Assembly (NCBI GenBank): GCA_009786535.1
Contig: WQRX01000018.1
Location: 8,513-72,512 of the forward strand
DNA length: 64,000 nt
Origin: Defluviitaleaceae bacterium
GTDB lineage: Bacteria; Bacillota; Clostridia; Lachnospirales; WQUN01
Direction of reading: 5' to 3'
The translations under genes were made by a program, and so were the position numbers. Each line of letters opens with the position of its first letter. Within the stretch, counting starts at the first letter, position 1. The notes below the pieces were generated by a model. It was not told the origin of the DNA. It saw only the letters and a list, made by a program, of their open reading frames with translations, and ran no database searches. Positions 3,276-33,094 of the stretch are shown one piece after another.

Positions 3276-3428
3276 GGGCGCGTCCCTCATTTCCGCTTAC
3301 TATAACGCTACGTATAATACTGTATTTTTGTACAATAACGCAACTGTTTTGTGTATGAGGATGAGGTTGCAATAAGACGGAAGAACGCGTGGGCTTTTTT
3401 ACGCCCGCCGCCGCAATAAAAGCACGCG

Positions 3429-4799
3429 CTACCGCAGTAGTGCCAATACCCGTTCTTGTGCTTGGTGGCTTTGTGCCAGCATAGCCATGGCTGCTTGGTT
3501 TAGTACATTTGATGCGGTAAGGCGCATCATTTCCAGCGCCATGTCGGCATCGCGAATGCGGGAGTTGGCGTTTTTCATATTCTCTGAAGCGGTTTGCAGG
3601 TTTTGATGGATATAGTCCAGGCGGTTCATGTGTGCGCCCACAATTACACGGTAACTGTTAATTTGGTTTAGCGCATTGTCGATAGCAAGCAGTGCCGCGT
3701 TGCCCCCGTCCCATGTGGTTACATCTAACCCCACCACGCCCAAAGCAGCAGCGCGGGCATCGAAAACGGGAAGGTTTAACCCCTGCCCAAAGTTTGCCCC
3801 CGATTGTATCCATAGGTCGGGAATGTGGGGCGGGCGGATTGTGTCCGGGTCTACATTGGGGTCGGGTTGGGATGCAATTAAAAAATAAAATTCTCTAACC
3901 GGCGAATCAATATAACTACTAAGCATAATCGTCCAATTACCTGAAACTGTTGTGTCGGTAATTATCATATGCACACTACCTGCAACATTATTATTATTTA
4001 CCGCCCCGGTTACAATCGACTCCACGGTTCCGCTGGGCGTATTAAAAGTGCCATGACTTCCTGCATTACCGGAATGCAAACCGATGATTGTACCATCCGG
4101 CGAAACAAGCGACACTTGTCCTGTAAAAACACCAATATTTTCATAATTTGAACCCGCGATCACAAATATTGCCCCGCGCGTACCCTGTGGTATGTACCAA
4201 GAAGCAAAGTTAGTATGACTTACGCCAGGATTCATACGGACTGTAAGTGTAGTACCAAAATAACCCGCTTCCCCTGCCCCAGGCAAACCTGTTGCATTTA
4301 CAATATTAACCCCCGGTCCAAAAACAAGGGGATTTGAAGGTGATGCACCGCCGCCCCCACCCCCGCCTAACCACGATGCGCCTGGGCGGTTTAATAAATC
4401 TACTGTATTAAATTGCGTCCGATTTGCGGAAGCCGTAATTTCTGTAATTAATTCATTCACTTCTCTTTGAATTTGCCGTTTATCTTCATCGGTATTCGTG
4501 TCGTTTAATGCTTGAATTGTAAGTTCTCGTTTGCGGATTAACATATCGCCGATAACGCTTAGCCCGCCGTCCATGGTTTGCAACAGTGAAAAACCGTCAC
4601 GCGTGTTTCTGTCGGCTTGGTCCAGCCCACGGATTTGCGCGCGCAGTTTTTCGGATATAGCTAACCCCGCCGCATCATCTGCGGCGGAGTTAATCCGATA
4701 CCCACTGGACAAACGCGTGGAAGCACGGCGTTGTTTAAGCCCAACATTTTTTAAATTTCGCCAGGCAGTTAAGCCCAGTTGGTTGGTTTGGATGGTCAT
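3429..4799 (-). CDS. fliC: Flagellin
   Basis: 456 aa. N-domain: LSSGYRINSAADDAAGLAISEKLRAQIRGLDQA. C-domain: NRLDYIHQNLQTASENMKNANSRIRDADMALEMMRLTASNVLNQAAMAMLAQSHQ...LLR. The ~210-aa variable middle opens with a GGGGGGG linker. There is no purine-rich SD in the 15 nt before the ATG. The start lies 9 nt after the stop of the upstream gene. Confidence 0.9.
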   Translation of the reverse strand: MTIQTNQLGLTAWRNLKNVGLKQRRASTRLSSGYRINSAADDAAGLAISEKLRAQIRGLDQADRNTRDGFSLLQTMDGGLSVIGDMLIRKRELTIQALNDTNTDEDKRQIQREVNELITEITASANRTQFNTVDLLNRPGASWLGGGGGGGASPSNPLVFGPGVNIVNATGLPGAGEAGYFGTTLTVRMNPGVSHTNFASWYIPQGTRGAIFVIAGSNYENIGVFTGQVSLVSPDGTIIGLHSGNAGSHGTFNTPSGTVESIVTGAVNNNNVAGSVHMIITDTTVSGNWTIMLSSYIDSPVREFYFLIASQPDPNVDPDTIRPPHIPDLWIQSGANFGQGLNLPVFDARAAALGVVGLDVTTWDGGNAALLAIDNALNQINSYRVIVGAHMNRLDYIHQNLQTASENMKNANSRIRDADMALEMMRLTASNVLNQAAMAMLAQSHQAQERVLALLR

Positions 4800-4808
4800 T
4801 GTTCTAAA

Positions 4809-7226
4809 TTAAACCATTCGGAACATCATTGAGGAAGTCGATTCATTACTAAAGTTGAATTGTAAACTTCCCGTGCTACCAACTAATTGCGTTTCAAAAA
4901 CATGTAACAATTGCCCCGGAGCAGTAATGCGGAATATTCTGTACTCTGCTGATGCATTTGCAGGCTGGAGCAAGCCAATCATATCAAATGCGCCGCTATG
5001 AACTGTAAAAGTGGTTGCATAAATATTAATTCCTAACCTTGCAATATCCGCGCTACATACACCAATATCAACATGGCTTACTAACCCGAAGAAAAAATCC
5101 ATTGGTGCAAAGTCCATAAAATACGTTAATAACCGTGGCGCTTCGGGAGTTGCATCATAAATGCTAATACTTACAATAATCGTATGCCCGCTGGTAAAAT
5201 TAACCCTAAACGGAAATGTTCCTGCGGGAAGCAAATCTAAAAATTCGCTTCTAAACATTATCGTTTCGCCAATTACGATATAATCTTGCGGGTTTCGCAA
5301 GCCGGGAATATCACGTACCGTTGCACCGCCAAAGGTGTTAAACTCAACAACGAGGTTTTCACCGCTATTGCGCACATGATGCCAGTAACGCGAGCCGCAC
5401 AATTCGGGTTCAATATTCCCTGCAAAGTCGATGCTTTCTTGGAAACGTACATACTCTGCACTATTTCGCTTGCGCAGTAACGGCAATTCACCATTTCTTA
5501 TCACGTCAACATTAAACGCGTTGCCGATAAGCAACGTAGATGTCCACCACGTTGGTAATGTAATTGCCTGTTGGTGTACCCGTACAGCTTGGCTAAAATC
5601 ACCAATCGCTCCACCGTGTATCCTGCTTGCAAAGCTATAAAAATTGTTTGAGGGAGAAAGCTGTGTGCCATTACCAACTATTGATACCGCCGCTGCAGCA
5701 GAAGGCGCAATAATATCGGCGATGATGAAATTATTGGTAATTGCAGCGTTAATTGTGCCGCGACCGCTCAAACGGCTTACGTCGCCAATCAATCCACCCG
5801 CAAAATTATTTGTTACGGTAATATTAACGCTTACATAATTTCGGTGAACATTTACCGTAGTCCAACGAATTGATGAAGAACCAGGAATGCTATAACGGAA
5901 ATGCAACTGCCCGGCTAACCCACCGGCACGTGTATTCGCGTATACCGTAGCATGGGAATAGTTGTTTGTAATGTCAAACACCAAACCATTTGCACCCGAA
6001 TCGAATAAACCAATTAGCCCGCCTACGCTATCATTACCACGGATTACACCCGTCGCATAGGAATTAGTAAGGGTAGAACCAGACGCCGTAGAATGAATAT
6101 GCCCTACAATACCGCCTACATTGTTATTGCCTGTAACATTTGCCCTGCCGAAACTGTTAAAAACATGGAACAAACCCGATGCGCGCCCAACTACGCCGCC
6201 TATGGCATTAGTTCCGCGTACTGTCGCATCATTTGTTAAACCGCTGTCGGAGATAGTAGTTGCCTCCATTAAGCCTGCAATACCGCCAACATTATTTCTG
6301 CCTTGTACATCAACATTAACGGTAGCGGTTGTAATGCGACCGCTTGTAATCTGTCCCGCAACGCCGCCAACATTATCAATACCTAGAATGCTGCTACCTG
6401 TTACGGTAATATCATTAAACGGAGTATTGGTTGCAATACCTACAACGCCGCCTACATTGTGGGCTTGACGCGCATTTATGCTTCCGCCTTCAATGTTTAT
6501 GTTTGATACCCTCGAATTAACAGCGGTACCAATCAGGAAGCCAATGTTATCCCTGCTATGACCTGTTACAACTACTTCAGGGTTTACCAAATTTACATTG
6601 TGGATATCGGCATTGTGGATGAAGCCAAACATACCAAGGCTGTTTATGCTTGCATTCAAGGGAATAAGCACCCAGTCAAAATTAATTAGCAAATTGTAAA
6701 TCGTAAACTCGTTACCGTTAAAACTCCCATTAAACGCATTGTGTTGTTGAAACCCAATGGGAAGGAAGTTAAAATAATTTGCCATGTCAATATCCGCCAC
6801 CAGCACATAGTAGGCGCGGTTAAAAAAGTCGATGGATAAGTAGGGATGCGCTTCCATACCCGATGTAAATTCACTAAAAGCCATAAGGTCTGCGCTGTTT
6901 GCTATCATGAAAGGAATGTTTACACCGTCACCACCGCTAAACAGTTGAGCAGATACGGGCGTTATGGCTGCGTAGACAACTTCAATTGCCTCATACGCAT
7001 CGCATTCGTATCCTTCTTCGTATTCCTCTCCAACTTCGTACTCGTCTTCAGTTTCAACTTCAAGTTCCGGGAAGTATTCATCCGGGGTGTATACTTCGTA
7101 TTCGGGATAATTGTAGATCTCATCGTCCCCGTAATACGCTGCACGCACAACCATTGCGTTGCCCAGCGCCATAACCAACGCCAGTAAAATTACTGCTACT
7201 TGCTTTGTCCATTTCCTTTTGTACAT
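4809..7226 (-). CDS. Secreted GLUG-motif repeat protein (adhesin/exoprotein-like)
   Basis: ORF track 4809..7286. The ATG at 7226 has AAGGAGG 7 nt upstream and gives the signal peptide MYKRKWTKQVAVILLALVMALGNAMVVRA. Next comes an acidic Glu/Tyr-rich stretch, then about 9 repeats with the core N-x-GG-[IVL]-[VAI]-G (NVGGVVG, DNVGGVAG, NNVGGIAG, NAIGGVVG, NNVGGIVG, DSVGGLIG, RAGGLAG, FAGGLIG). The C-terminal ~250 aa look beta-rich. No LPXTG motif. Confidence 0.8.
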   Translation of the reverse strand: MYKRKWTKQVAVILLALVMALGNAMVVRAAYYGDDEIYNYPEYEVYTPDEYFPELEVETEDEYEVGEEYEEGYECDAYEAIEVVYAAITPVSAQLFSGGDGVNIPFMIANSADLMAFSEFTSGMEAHPYLSIDFFNRAYYVLVADIDMANYFNFLPIGFQQHNAFNGSFNGNEFTIYNLLINFDWVLIPLNASINSLGMFGFIHNADIHNVNLVNPEVVVTGHSRDNIGFLIGTAVNSRVSNINIEGGSINARQAHNVGGVVGIATNTPFNDITVTGSSILGIDNVGGVAGQITSGRITTATVNVDVQGRNNVGGIAGLMEATTISDSGLTNDATVRGTNAIGGVVGRASGLFHVFNSFGRANVTGNNNVGGIVGHIHSTASGSTLTNSYATGVIRGNDSVGGLIGLFDSGANGLVFDITNNYSHATVYANTRAGGLAGQLHFRYSIPGSSSIRWTTVNVHRNYVSVNITVTNNFAGGLIGDVSRLSGRGTINAAITNNFIIADIIAPSAAAAVSIVGNGTQLSPSNNFYSFASRIHGGAIGDFSQAVRVHQQAITLPTWWTSTLLIGNAFNVDVIRNGELPLLRKRNSAEYVRFQESIDFAGNIEPELCGSRYWHHVRNSGENLVVEFNTFGGATVRDIPGLRNPQDYIVIGETIMFRSEFLDLLPAGTFPFRVNFTSGHTIIVSISIYDATPEAPRLLTYFMDFAPMDFFFGLVSHVDIGVCSADIARLGINIYATTFTVHSGAFDMIGLLQPANASAEYRIFRITAPGQLLHVFETQLVGSTGSLQFNFSNESTSSMMFRMV

Positions 7227-7240
7227 CTTGTTTCCTCCTT

Positions 7241-7262
7241 GGGATAAAATTGGGATAAAATT
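7241..7262. repeat. Perfect tandem duplication of the 11-mer GGGATAAAATT
   Basis: Read directly: gggataaaatt (7241-7251) and gggataaaatt (7252-7262). It lies immediately upstream (minus-strand sense) of the SD of the GLUG gene. Confidence 0.9.
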
Positions 7263-7302
7263 TGACATGTCGGGCACATCATACACTCATTCAAAATAAA
7301 AA

Positions 7303-7354
7303 GTGTGGAGAAACTTGCACACATTCTTAAAATAATGTGCAAATTTCTCCACAC
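7303..7354 (-). terminator. Long imperfect inverted repeat (~21-nt arms) followed by TTTTTATTTT on the minus strand; terminator or attenuator-like
   Basis: Left arm GTGTGGAGAAACTTGCACACATT; the right arm rc is GTGTGGAGAAATTTGCACATT. On the minus strand the stem is followed by tttttatttt (rc of 7293-7302). On the plus strand only CTTTATT follows. Confidence 0.5.
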
Positions 7355-7359
7355 TTTAT

Positions 7360-7401
7360 TGCGGGATATTCTGTATACTTGCCGCAACAAAATATCCCGC
7401 A
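7360..7401. repeat. 11-bp inverted repeat TGCGGGATATT / AATATCCCGCA with a 20-nt loop
   Basis: Read directly. It sits between the long hairpin and the peptide gene. No T-tract follows on either strand. Confidence 0.7.
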
Positions 7402-7442
7402 TTCACAAATGTCGGGCATACAAATGCTAAGGAGGCTATGAC

Positions 7443-7616
7443 ATGAAAAAAATGTTATTAGCAGTTATGGTTGGTCTAGGTGTTTTACTTACAGGTGTTT
7501 TGTTCGCGGTAACGACGCAAGCGTATGAACCCCCAGCAAATTACTGCATTGAGATTGCAATGCCCGACGCACGTGTTTTACCCAAGTATCCCTCAATCCC
7601 ACCCACTCGGGGATAG
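7443..7616 (+). CDS. Unannotated 57-aa secreted pre-peptide (candidate signalling pro-peptide)
   Basis: Below the 60-aa cutoff of the ORF track. SD AAGGAGG (7429-7435) lies 7 nt before the ATG at 7443. Translation: MKKMLLAVMVGLGVLLTGVLFAVTTQA|YEPPANYCIEIAMPDARVLPKYPSIPPTRG, followed by a stop codon. It has a classic Sec signal peptide with an AxA-like site (TQA) and a Pro-rich 30-aa tail. The stop at 7614-7616 is 4 nt from the stop of the convergent regulator gene. Confidence 0.6.
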   Translation: MKKMLLAVMVGLGVLLTGVLFAVTTQAYEPPANYCIEIAMPDARVLPKYPSIPPTRG

Positions 7617-7620
7617 CATG

Positions 7621-8523
7621 TTACAAAACAATATTAAAATTATCTGCAACAAAATTGCGGATTATCTCTTTATACCTATACATTTTATACATTTCAAACG
7701 AATAGTACACTTGCTTGAATAAGCTTAAACTCCCATCCCTATCACCAATATCGAATAAACAACATGCTTTATTCGATGTGATTTGCGGTAACATATACGT
7801 GTCATATGTTTTTATGCAGATATCAATTCCTTTATCACATAGAGGAATTGCTTCTGTTTGTCTATTCATATCCCGCAAGTAACTAGTGAGATTAAATACT
7901 AAAGTAGGATAGTGCCGACCTAGATAACGCGGGTCGGCACAATTGTTTTCAAAATTACGCATCAAAGCGAGCATAGTATTAACTGCATCATCTCGCTTAC
8001 TGCTTTCCCAACGGACAAGGGATAGCTGGTTTATTAATATTATGTCGTTGCTTGTTAATAGATATTCTTCAATTCGCTTTTCGTCAAAATTGGGAATACT
8101 CATTTTTAATGCCCGGTCAACCATTTTAATAATTTTTGCAGGCGATTCTTCATTAATAATCGCAATAGCAGCCTTTGAGCGCAAAATGTATTGACGGTTA
8201 ATCGTTTTATACATAAAATCATCGTTTGCTTCCAACTCTGCCACAAGCTGGGTAGCTGTAACCGTATTTCGTGCAGATAAGCTAGCTTCAACCTCATTCT
8301 TCCGTTGCCATTCATCGGTAGGCAGTATATCCGCACTATACCCCAACCGTTCAATCAACTGCACCAGCGTATCATACGAGCAGGAGATTTTCCCCGTTTC
8401 AATTTTGCTTAGTGAATCACGGCGTCCAATTATTCCGTCTGCCAATTCGCTTTGGGTTAGCCCCCGCTGCTTACGCGCCTTTTTAATAAACGTACCTACA
8501 TCCATGTTGCCGATTTTTACCAA
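7621..8523 (-). CDS. XRE-family HTH regulator with a C-terminal helical-repeat (TPR/Rgg-PlcR-like) domain
   Basis: 300 aa. N-terminus: FIKKARKQRGLTQSELADGI...SLSKIETGK (HTH_XRE). The remaining ~230 aa are helical-repeat-like (Leu/Tyr/Asn-rich). The size and architecture match PlcR/Rgg-type receptors. TTG start at 8523 with AAGGGGG 8 nt upstream. AT-rich gene. Confidence 0.75.
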   Translation of the reverse strand: MVKIGNMDVGTFIKKARKQRGLTQSELADGIIGRRDSLSKIETGKISCSYDTLVQLIERLGYSADILPTDEWQRKNEVEASLSARNTVTATQLVAELEANDDFMYKTINRQYILRSKAAIAIINEESPAKIIKMVDRALKMSIPNFDEKRIEEYLLTSNDIILINQLSLVRWESSKRDDAVNTMLALMRNFENNCADPRYLGRHYPTLVFNLTSYLRDMNRQTEAIPLCDKGIDICIKTYDTYMLPQITSNKACCLFDIGDRDGSLSLFKQVYYSFEMYKMYRYKEIIRNFVADNFNIVL

Positions 8524-32348: not shown

Positions 32349-33094
32349 CGGCGTTTCAAATGAAGATGATTGCCATCATCGGCATGGTGCTGCAACATGC
32401 GGCATTGGCGTTACCAGATGCCTTTCCCCTTGGGGTGGAAATTTTCTTGCAAATATCGGGCGGGCTTACATTTCCGATAATGGCGTTTTTGTTGGTGGAG
32501 GGATTTCGCACTACGTCAAACATAAGCAAGTACAAACAACGCATCGCCATTTTTGGCGCTATATCCTTTGTGCCGCATTTGTTTGCGTTGGGCTCAGGCT
32601 TAAATATAATGTTTACGTTGTTATTTGGGCTAATGCTGCTGGAATACCATGCCCGCAGCGGCAAAACAGGCACGTTTTGGGGTATGGCTGTATTGTTAAC
32701 GCTTATTTCTACTGTGTTCGACTGGGGGATTATTGGACCGATTGTGATTTTGTTATACGGCGCAATGAAAAACGAAAAGCTACGGCGCGCCCTTGTGCCT
32801 GCGTTCTTTGCGGTAGGGGTTATTGTTTCCGGTGCGTTATTTAGCGCTGTACTTTCGGTATTTAATTTAGACATGACGGGGTACGAGGCTTCCCCCGCTA
32901 TGATGTTCTTCCCCATCGGCGCATTGCCGGCAATTCCGCTATTGCTTATGTACAAAGGCGAACGGGGCAGAAAATCGAAGTGGTTCTTCTACATTTTCTA
33001 CCCCGCGCATTTGGTGGTGCTTGCGGTCATTTCATTAGTGATGGGGAATAATGTGCTGGTTTCCACCATACAGGAAATGCTGGCGAAATTTTAA
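32339..33094 (+). CDS. TraX-family membrane protein
   Basis: 251 aa. N-terminus FQMKMIAIIGMVLQHAALAL matches the TraX family start (LK.iA...M..DH.g). Multiple TM segments. Confidence 0.7.
   Translation: MQITAFQMKMIAIIGMVLQHAALALPDAFPLGVEIFLQISGGLTFPIMAFLLVEGFRTTSNISKYKQRIAIFGAISFVPHLFALGSGLNIMFTLLFGLMLLEYHARSGKTGTFWGMAVLLTLISTVFDWGIIGPIVILLYGAMKNEKLRRALVPAFFAVGVIVSGALFSAVLSVFNLDMTGYEASPAMMFFPIGALPAIPLLLMYKGERGRKSKWFFYIFYPAHLVVLAVISLVMGNNVLVSTIQEMLAKF

Follow-up and report, generated by a model that had tools for sequence, protein, structure and literature searches.

Gene content of the locus

We analyzed a 64,000-nucleotide (nt) stretch of contig WQRX01000018.1 of a Defluviitaleaceae bacterium (hereafter, the window), in which a flagellin gene directly follows, on the same strand, a gene for a large secreted protein with GLUG repeats. 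A preliminary description, made from the letters of the window alone, had drawn attention to this pair and suggested that the flagellin, instead of being an ordinary filament subunit, could be a surface or secreted partner expressed together with the GLUG protein. The arrangement is real, conserved, and unusual, and constitutes an accessory-flagellin organization of a new form. In the literature, we found no paper on this arrangement and none linking GLUG proteins or the flagellins of Defluviitaleaceae to such operons. The features of the locus are as follows.

3384–3430, minus strand: terminator-like hairpin beginning at the flagellin stop codon, followed by a U-rich tract (3369–3383); called from RNA folding
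3429–4799, minus strand: flagellin gene, 456 amino acids; called from Pfam domains, an AlphaFold2 (AF2) model, and Foldseek
3795–4388, minus strand: outer (variable) domain of the flagellin, about 200 amino acids, with a Gly7 linker followed by about 11 strands predicted to form an all-beta sandwich; called from AF2
4800–4808, minus strand: 9-nt spacer tttagaaca between the GLUG stop codon TAA and the flagellin ATG, without a Shine–Dalgarno (SD) sequence
7226 (ATG) to 4809 (stop), minus strand: GLUG/CBM_X2-like exoprotein gene, 805 amino acids; called from Pfam, an alignment, and homologues
7227–7442: divergent control region between the GLUG–flagellin operon and the pro-peptide gene, with large inverted repeats and a tandem 11-mer
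7443–7616, plus strand: pro-peptide gene, 57 amino acids, with a signal peptide and a tail of about 30 amino acids, convergent with the regulator gene; called from the open reading frame (ORF) and its SD
7621–8523, minus strand: RNPP/PlcR-like regulator gene, 300 amino acids, HTH_3 and a helical-repeat C-terminal part

The GLUG–flagellin junction

As the preliminary description stated, the flagellin ATG lies 9 nt past the GLUG stop codon, and the junction reads TAA-tttagaaca-ATG. SD pairing, sigma-28 scores, and G+C content were judged against the background of the same genome. The 20 nt upstream of the flagellin start paired with the 3′ end of the 16S rRNA at −3.8 kcal/mol, which is the level of random sequence (median of random 20-mers, −2.9 kcal/mol), compared with −7.6 to −16.3 kcal/mol for the other 10 flagellin genes of the genome; the flagellin gene has no SD, as had been claimed. 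The GLUG gene carries a strong SD (AAGGAGG) just 5′ of its start, with a duplex energy of −11.2 kcal/mol. The claim that a sigma-28-like promoter is missing also held: within 400 nt upstream of the flagellin, the best match to TAAA-N14-16-GCCGATAA scored 7/12, below the commonest background score of the genome, 8. Among the other flagellin genes, the one that follows csrA scored 11/12 and two more scored 10/12. Judged by these signals, the gene does not belong to the class III genes of sigma-28 (FliA/SigD), which are characterized by a TAAA-N15-GCCGATAA-type promoter and a strong SD. Consensus scans of the junction found neither a sigma-70 site nor a terminator, and no local RNA structure at the spacer was more stable than those of shuffled sequences. 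The spacer is a likely site of termination–reinitiation. At the other end of the flagellin gene, the hairpin at 3384–3430 was missed by the strict consensus scan, so that the call is tentative; it probably marks the end of the operon.

The GLUG and flagellin ORFs share a reading frame, with one TAA and three sense codons between them (4799–4811). A fusion product made by reading through the stop codon was considered and rejected, because the corresponding gaps in homologues are 2, 4, and 7 nt; the frame match in the window looks like a coincidence.

The flagellin and the GLUG exoprotein

The flagellin matched both Flagellin_N (PF00669; residues 3–137, 116.9 bits against a cut-off of 26.6) and Flagellin_C (PF00700; residues 372–455, 68.1 bits against a cut-off of 23) in Pfam. 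The D0/D1 region was helical in the AF2 model, with a predicted local distance difference test score (pLDDT) of 80–94 within D1, and the best Foldseek matches of the full-length model were solved flagellar filaments, on whose flagellins it superposed. By both Pfam domains and the predicted fold, the protein is a bacterial flagellin of the FliC/Hag type. D0/D1 is full length and conserved, both termini included, with 55–66% identity to the other paralogues of the genome. The comparison of paralogues and the full-length alignment showed that the helical regions are better conserved than the center of the protein, which matches the expectation for purifying selection.

The Gly7 linker and the all-beta sandwich that had been described in the center of the flagellin (about 200 amino acids) were present in both the sequence and the AF2 prediction. 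The model of this outer domain was of moderate confidence (pLDDT, 60; predicted template modeling score, 0.65), and in Foldseek it matched only generic jelly-roll or beta-sandwich folds (the CspB/CspC insert, with TMq of about 0.4; GOLD; and CBM3). Such matches, made with a predicted structure, are too generic for a function to be read from them. The domain occurs only once in the genome. A phmmer search of 1.8 billion representatives returned a single match (P0124), and a word-based search found nothing beyond the window protein itself. The PDGT, GxW, and F motifs of the domain are common to seven other flagellins, but this likeness is weak and appears only in the full-length alignment. By its sequence, the outer domain is close to an orphan. 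Residues 138–371 contained no Pfam domain, and the metallopeptidase that marks the flagellinolysin family was not among their matches; neither cohesin nor dockerin was found in the six flagellin centers checked.

The GLUG protein begins with a Sec-type signal peptide, followed by an acidic Tyr-rich linker (about amino acids 30–95), a GLUG beta-helix (about 96–545), an Ig-like domain resembling CBM_X2 (about 632–685), and a fast-evolving C-terminal domain. The linker is also present in the GLUG homologue P0004 and in the protein encoded at locus L015. The Glug match (PF07581) passed its cut-off only marginally (22.9 against 20.5 bits), and the assignment is backed by 754 homologues, mostly annotated as PF07581, and by the invariant GG..G repeats in a sequence alignment. 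The CBM_X2 match (PF03442) remained under its cut-off (25.4 against 28.9 bits), and a precomputed Pfam match exists for the GLUG protein and several homologues. We recognized no wall anchor on the GLUG protein, and a sequence search of the PDB gave no match.

Recurrence and descent of the pair

The close homologues of the GLUG protein form a small family, all on metagenome contigs, and we inspected nine homologous loci. At six of these loci, counting the window and counting only once each homologue that occurred on two contigs (L037/L038 and L011/L012), a flagellin gene lies 3′ of the GLUG gene on the same strand. The identity of the GLUG protein to that in the window and the gap between the two genes at the other five loci are as follows.

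L060: GLUG identity 55%, gap to flagellin 4 nt
L010: GLUG identity 53%, gap to flagellin 7 nt
L037/L038: GLUG identity 38%, gap to flagellin 2 nt
L017: GLUG identity 36%, gap to flagellin 106 nt
L011/L012: GLUG identity 32%, gap to flagellin 497 nt

The four closest versions of the pair, including that in the window, thus have a tight junction of 2–9 nt. When the search was started from the flagellin, the best full-length matches were the flagellins of L010 and L037, and in a tree built from D0/D1 only, the window flagellin grouped with these two (support, 99/94), apart from the 10 paralogues of its own genome. The agreement between the tree and the flagellin-side search argues that the pair descends as a unit and did not arise by a recent local duplication; as far as these sequences indicate, it is both inherited and exchanged as a unit. 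Together with the 4-, 7-, and 2-nt gaps in homologues and the lack of an intervening terminator, promoter, or SD, this clade supports the earlier proposal that the flagellin and the GLUG protein are partners made together.

The pair was absent from 40 relatives, including four congeners, and in every congener the gene order breaks immediately after the SipL gene. The pair is accessory DNA. No further GLUG-family loci came from pattern scans, of which two covered 185,579 species genomes and one covered metagenomes. The flagellin P0127, which has a related center, was considered as a further case of the pair and rejected, because its gene follows another flagellin gene and not a GLUG gene. The preliminary description had also seen an AT-rich island at 3.4–8.5 kb. 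This holds for the control region (216 nt, 38.0% G+C) and the regulator gene (38.3%), which are both near the 5th percentile of the genome, but not for the flagellin gene, whose G+C content (48.5%) equals the genome median, and the GLUG gene (43.8%) lies at the 20th percentile.

Some metagenome proteins combine both parts of the pair in a single chain. P0112 (929 amino acids) consists of Flagellin_N, an internal GLUG beta-helix, and Flagellin_C, and P0035 (1202 amino acids) contains three GLUG modules and Flagellin_C. These proteins represent in fused form what the window encodes as two separate genes.

The recorded protein of one further GLUG-family homologue, P0007 (L018, a Logan contig of SRR25435814), was obtained only when TGA was translated as Trp, which suggests a family member from an organism with a reassigned stop codon.

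Upstream control region and putative quorum-sensing genes

The control region in front of the GLUG gene contains a large inverted repeat at 7303–7354. The regulator on its far side matched HTH_3 (40 bits), and its RNPP_C match (19.9 bits) lay below the cut-off of 26.5. A homologous HTH-TPR regulator is located upstream of the GLUG homologue of L015/16 (25% identity to the window regulator, E = 2e-16). At L060, the closest homologue, a divergent pro-peptide gene is also found upstream of the pair, and a perfect palindrome with 19-nt arms (CCATAACATAAAGTGAAAA...TTTTCACTTTATGTTATGG; L060:240–297) stands immediately 5′ of the GLUG homologue start. This palindrome, which resembles the inverted repeat in the window, is a candidate operator or leader structure.

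At L037, a contig of ENA ERZ27257339, the position of the RNPP cassette is taken by a complete AgrB–AgrD–AgrC–AgrA cassette directly upstream of the GLUG–flagellin pair (L037:840–3822), consisting of AgrB, a 58-amino-acid AgrD-like ORF, an HATPase_c_5 kinase, and a LytTR regulator; the arrangement is identical in JGI Ga0209755_10001914. The presence of two types of peptide signaling, RNPP and Agr, in front of the same cargo argues that selection has favored control of the module by cell density. Like cassettes of the PlcR/PapR type, the one in the window has a regulator with an HTH and a helical-repeat sensor, a small secreted pro-peptide, and an adjoining cargo operon. It differs from the PlcR/PapR type in that its cargo includes a flagellin, its peptide gene is convergent with the regulator gene, and its RNPP_C match is sub-threshold.

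Other flagellins and similar modules in the genome

The flagellin had been described as standing without other flagellar genes in 64 kb. The part of this statement that was checked in the window stands, in that the contig contains no second Flagellin_N match, but the picture of a lone flagellin does not, because the genome encodes 11 flagellins including that in the window, three proteins of the FlgK/FlgL type, FlhA, and FliA, the rest of them on other contigs. This full flagellar export and regulation set also weakens the idea of a non-filament protein.

Five of the 11 flagellin genes adjoin a gene for a large Sec-type protein on the same strand (P of about 0.005, even under a loose definition). 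Moreover, the combination of a signal peptide with an acidic Tyr-rich low-complexity linker occurs in only six proteins genome-wide, four of which are flagellin neighbors, and four of the 13 paralogues of the regulator are encoded next to flagellin modules. The module in the window is one of several in this genome in which a large secreted protein is accompanied by a dedicated flagellin. The loci concerned are listed below by contig.

C18: window locus; 805-amino-acid GLUG protein, then flagellin
C24:20305–21774: 457-amino-acid DDDYYYDYDYDK-repeat secreted protein, then flagellin
C32:18745–33746: 4570-amino-acid secreted protein (DUF11, dockerin, and cohesin matches; NQGG-repeat tail), then 524-amino-acid flagellin
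C2:110186–123775: 4027-amino-acid Calx-beta protein, then flagellin; divergent RNPP paralogue
C9:43332–48075: short 262-amino-acid flagellin-like gene, then 1294-amino-acid CAP/Ig/Cu_amine_oxidN1 protein downstream
C20:19391–22400: RNPP paralogue about 580 nt upstream of flagellin

The C32 locus copies the gene order of the window, with an RNPP paralogue (33746–32838, minus strand), a convergent pro-peptide gene of 55 amino acids (32647–32814), the adhesin gene, and the flagellin gene. This flagellin gene starts 87 nt past the adhesin gene, and a terminator-like hairpin in the gap takes up the space that a promoter would need. The csrA gene is located directly upstream of another flagellin.

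Members of the same genus have 0–5 flagellins: G001, G003, and G004 (loci L046–L052) have four or five, and G002 gave no match. Many flagellins of these congeners are giant (778–1714 amino acids), and in the giant ones no Pfam domain that might match the partner proteins was found, only the flagellin ends. The order of a FliK-like gene and then a flagellin gene, the counterpart of the C1 locus, is kept across the genus.

Proposed mechanism and alternative explanations

The reading that we prefer, with a probability of roughly 0.55, is that the locus is a translationally coupled operon under quorum-sensing control, which encodes a GLUG exoprotein and then a dedicated flagellin that serves as a minor or segmental filament subunit. 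It builds on the gene order, the lack of separate signals, the conserved tight junction, the co-descent of the pair, and the neighboring signaling genes, all as they appear in the DNA. A single transcript would start in the control region (7227–7442), so that the flagellin would be transcribed only from the GLUG promoter, and ribosomes that end at the GLUG stop codon and restart 9 nt downstream would be the main route to flagellin. The output of flagellin would follow that of the GLUG protein and be capped at about the same level, which suits a partner or minor component of the filament better than a bulk subunit. Induction would come not from sigma-28 but from the adjacent peptide cassette, the RNPP-like regulator and the secreted pro-peptide. 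The GLUG protein would be exported via Sec and the flagellin through the flagellar export apparatus encoded elsewhere, as its intact D0/D1 helices suggest. Given the intact termini and the presence of FlhA and FliA in the genome, the flagellin may polymerize after type III export, as a minor or segmental component through which filaments would display its private beta-sandwich domain. Both products would reach the cell surface together at high cell density, and the pair probably serves attachment or surface remodeling.

In textbooks, flagellin genes exemplify late flagellar genes whose expression is strong and independent. The conserved module described here contrasts with them, in that transcription and translation of the flagellin would both be slaved to a secreted surface protein and, as it appears, to peptide quorum sensing. 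If this is true, it would point to a gut fiber-associated bacterium that re-tools its filaments for attachment when cell density is high, and the pair provides a concrete candidate, open to testing, for proteins decorating external flagella.

Several observations weigh against this reading. In the two more distant pairs (L017 and L011), the genes are 106–497 nt apart with an intervening hairpin, which makes tight coupling a trait of one subclade and not of the whole family. Three or four still more distant homologues of the GLUG family have other neighbors and no adjacent flagellin gene, and P0132 and P0128, two flagellins whose outer domain is of this type, each have an SD and a 5′ region of their own. 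Ribosomes usually reinitiate poorly where no SD is present, and very little of the flagellin may be produced. The co-transcription, the promoter, the quorum-sensing control, and the assembly of the flagellin into filaments are all deduced from sequence.

Some of these observations, together with the frequent presence of transposase or primase genes near GLUG-family loci and the absence of the pair from all 40 relatives examined, would also fit a linkage without partnership. The flagellin would then be expressed independently, either from an unrecognized promoter inside the GLUG gene or by read-through, as one more antigenic or mechanical variant, and would be adjacent to the GLUG gene only because both belong to a mobile accessory cassette. 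The flagellins of L011 and L017, which have their own SD and are separated from the GLUG gene by hairpins, and the GLUG homologues without a flagellin agree with such a history. We nevertheless regard it as unlikely, because four independent junctions of 2–9 nt across 38–55% protein identity are hard to keep unless coupling is selected for, neither a sigma-70 nor a sigma-28 consensus was found 5′ of the flagellin gene, and four other flagellin loci show the same adjacency to large secreted proteins that are unrelated. The preliminary description had named two observations that would speak against a partnership, namely, an independent promoter combined with a flagellar regulon elsewhere, and the absence of the adjacency from relatives. 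The regulon exists, yet no independent promoter was found; the adjacency is missing from the taxonomic relatives because they lack the whole pair, and it is present in the closest homologues of the pair itself.

The original idea of a non-filament role, in which the flagellin is an exported or retained soluble partner of the GLUG system, cap-like or regulatory, can call on the lack of an SD and a sigma-28 promoter, which would be expected for a protein needed in about 20,000 copies, on the tie between flagellin output and a Sec-secreted protein, and on the private outer domain. Considering that D0/D1 is full length and conserved at both termini, that the model superposes on filament flagellins, and that the protein falls inside ordinary flagellin diversity in the tree, we consider this role improbable to a high degree; minor flagellins that are incorporated into filaments are well known in bacteria with multiple flagellins. 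Least plausible of all is a silent paralogue, decaying or barely translated and left behind the GLUG gene. Its SD pairing is at the random level, and among the ten other flagellin genes of the genome, two or three have sigma-28-type promoters, but the 456-codon frame is intact, three other contigs carry orthologues that are likewise intact and in a similar position, and the helical regions are conserved above the center, as under purifying selection.

A more far-reaching version of the preferred reading, which we put forward as a doubtful possibility, is a split functionalized flagellum, in which large Sec-secreted, adhesin-like proteins would dock non-covalently on the private outer domain of whichever flagellin their own gene adjoins. 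It would cover the GLUG, DUF11/dockerin, Calx-beta, and CAP/Ig types of partners, and docking might involve the shared acidic Tyr-rich linker or the fast-evolving C-terminal domain. The filament would be an exchangeable display scaffold on which quorum-sensing cassettes choose the adhesin–flagellin pair to be mounted, and the proteins with GLUG inside the flagellin would be a fused form of the same design. Contact between the GLUG protein and the flagellin is favored by these fused proteins, by the lack of an anchor on the GLUG protein, and by the fast co-variation of its C-terminal domain and the flagellin center; against it, no docking module was found in the six flagellin centers tested. 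Cohesin–dockerin docking was rejected, because the C32 partner has dockerin and cohesin matches and the flagellin centers (n = 6) have neither. If docking is real, the pair offers a natural scaffold for the display of large proteins on filaments.

Comparison with known systems

In multi-flagellin systems with differently regulated accessory flagellins, such as those of Vibrio, Caulobacter, Campylobacter (flaA/flaB), and gut Lachnospiraceae including Roseburia, several paralogues likewise share conserved D0/D1 regions and have divergent outer domains, and only some of them have a sigma-28 promoter. The window flagellin differs from them in having neither a promoter nor an SD of its own, in its coupling to a gene whose product is secreted via Sec, and in lying beside a putative peptide quorum-sensing cassette. 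The hag gene of Bacillus subtilis, also a Firmicute, encodes a protein of the same Pfam families and is controlled by a sigma-D promoter and by CsrA/FliW at its SD. One flagellin gene of this genome likewise directly follows csrA and has an 11/12 sigma-D-type promoter, whereas the window flagellin has no sigma-D-type promoter and no SD for CsrA to occlude.

The sheath proteins of spirochaetes (FlaA, and FcpA/FcpB of Leptospira) are, to our knowledge, the only well-known Sec-exported coats on filaments of type-III-exported flagellin, and such coating is the mechanism that the docking proposal invokes. They are periplasmic, and no sequence relation to the window proteins is expected; we know of no translational coupling between their genes and flagellin genes.

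Flagellinolysins (PMC5595980) and giant flagellins (PMC6248924) carry a functional module on the filament surface, and P0112, P0035, and the 778–1714-amino-acid flagellins of the congeners can be compared with them. In the window, unlike in these enzymatic and giant flagellins, GLUG forms a protein of its own that is exported via Sec, and a small beta-sandwich is all that the flagellin retains.

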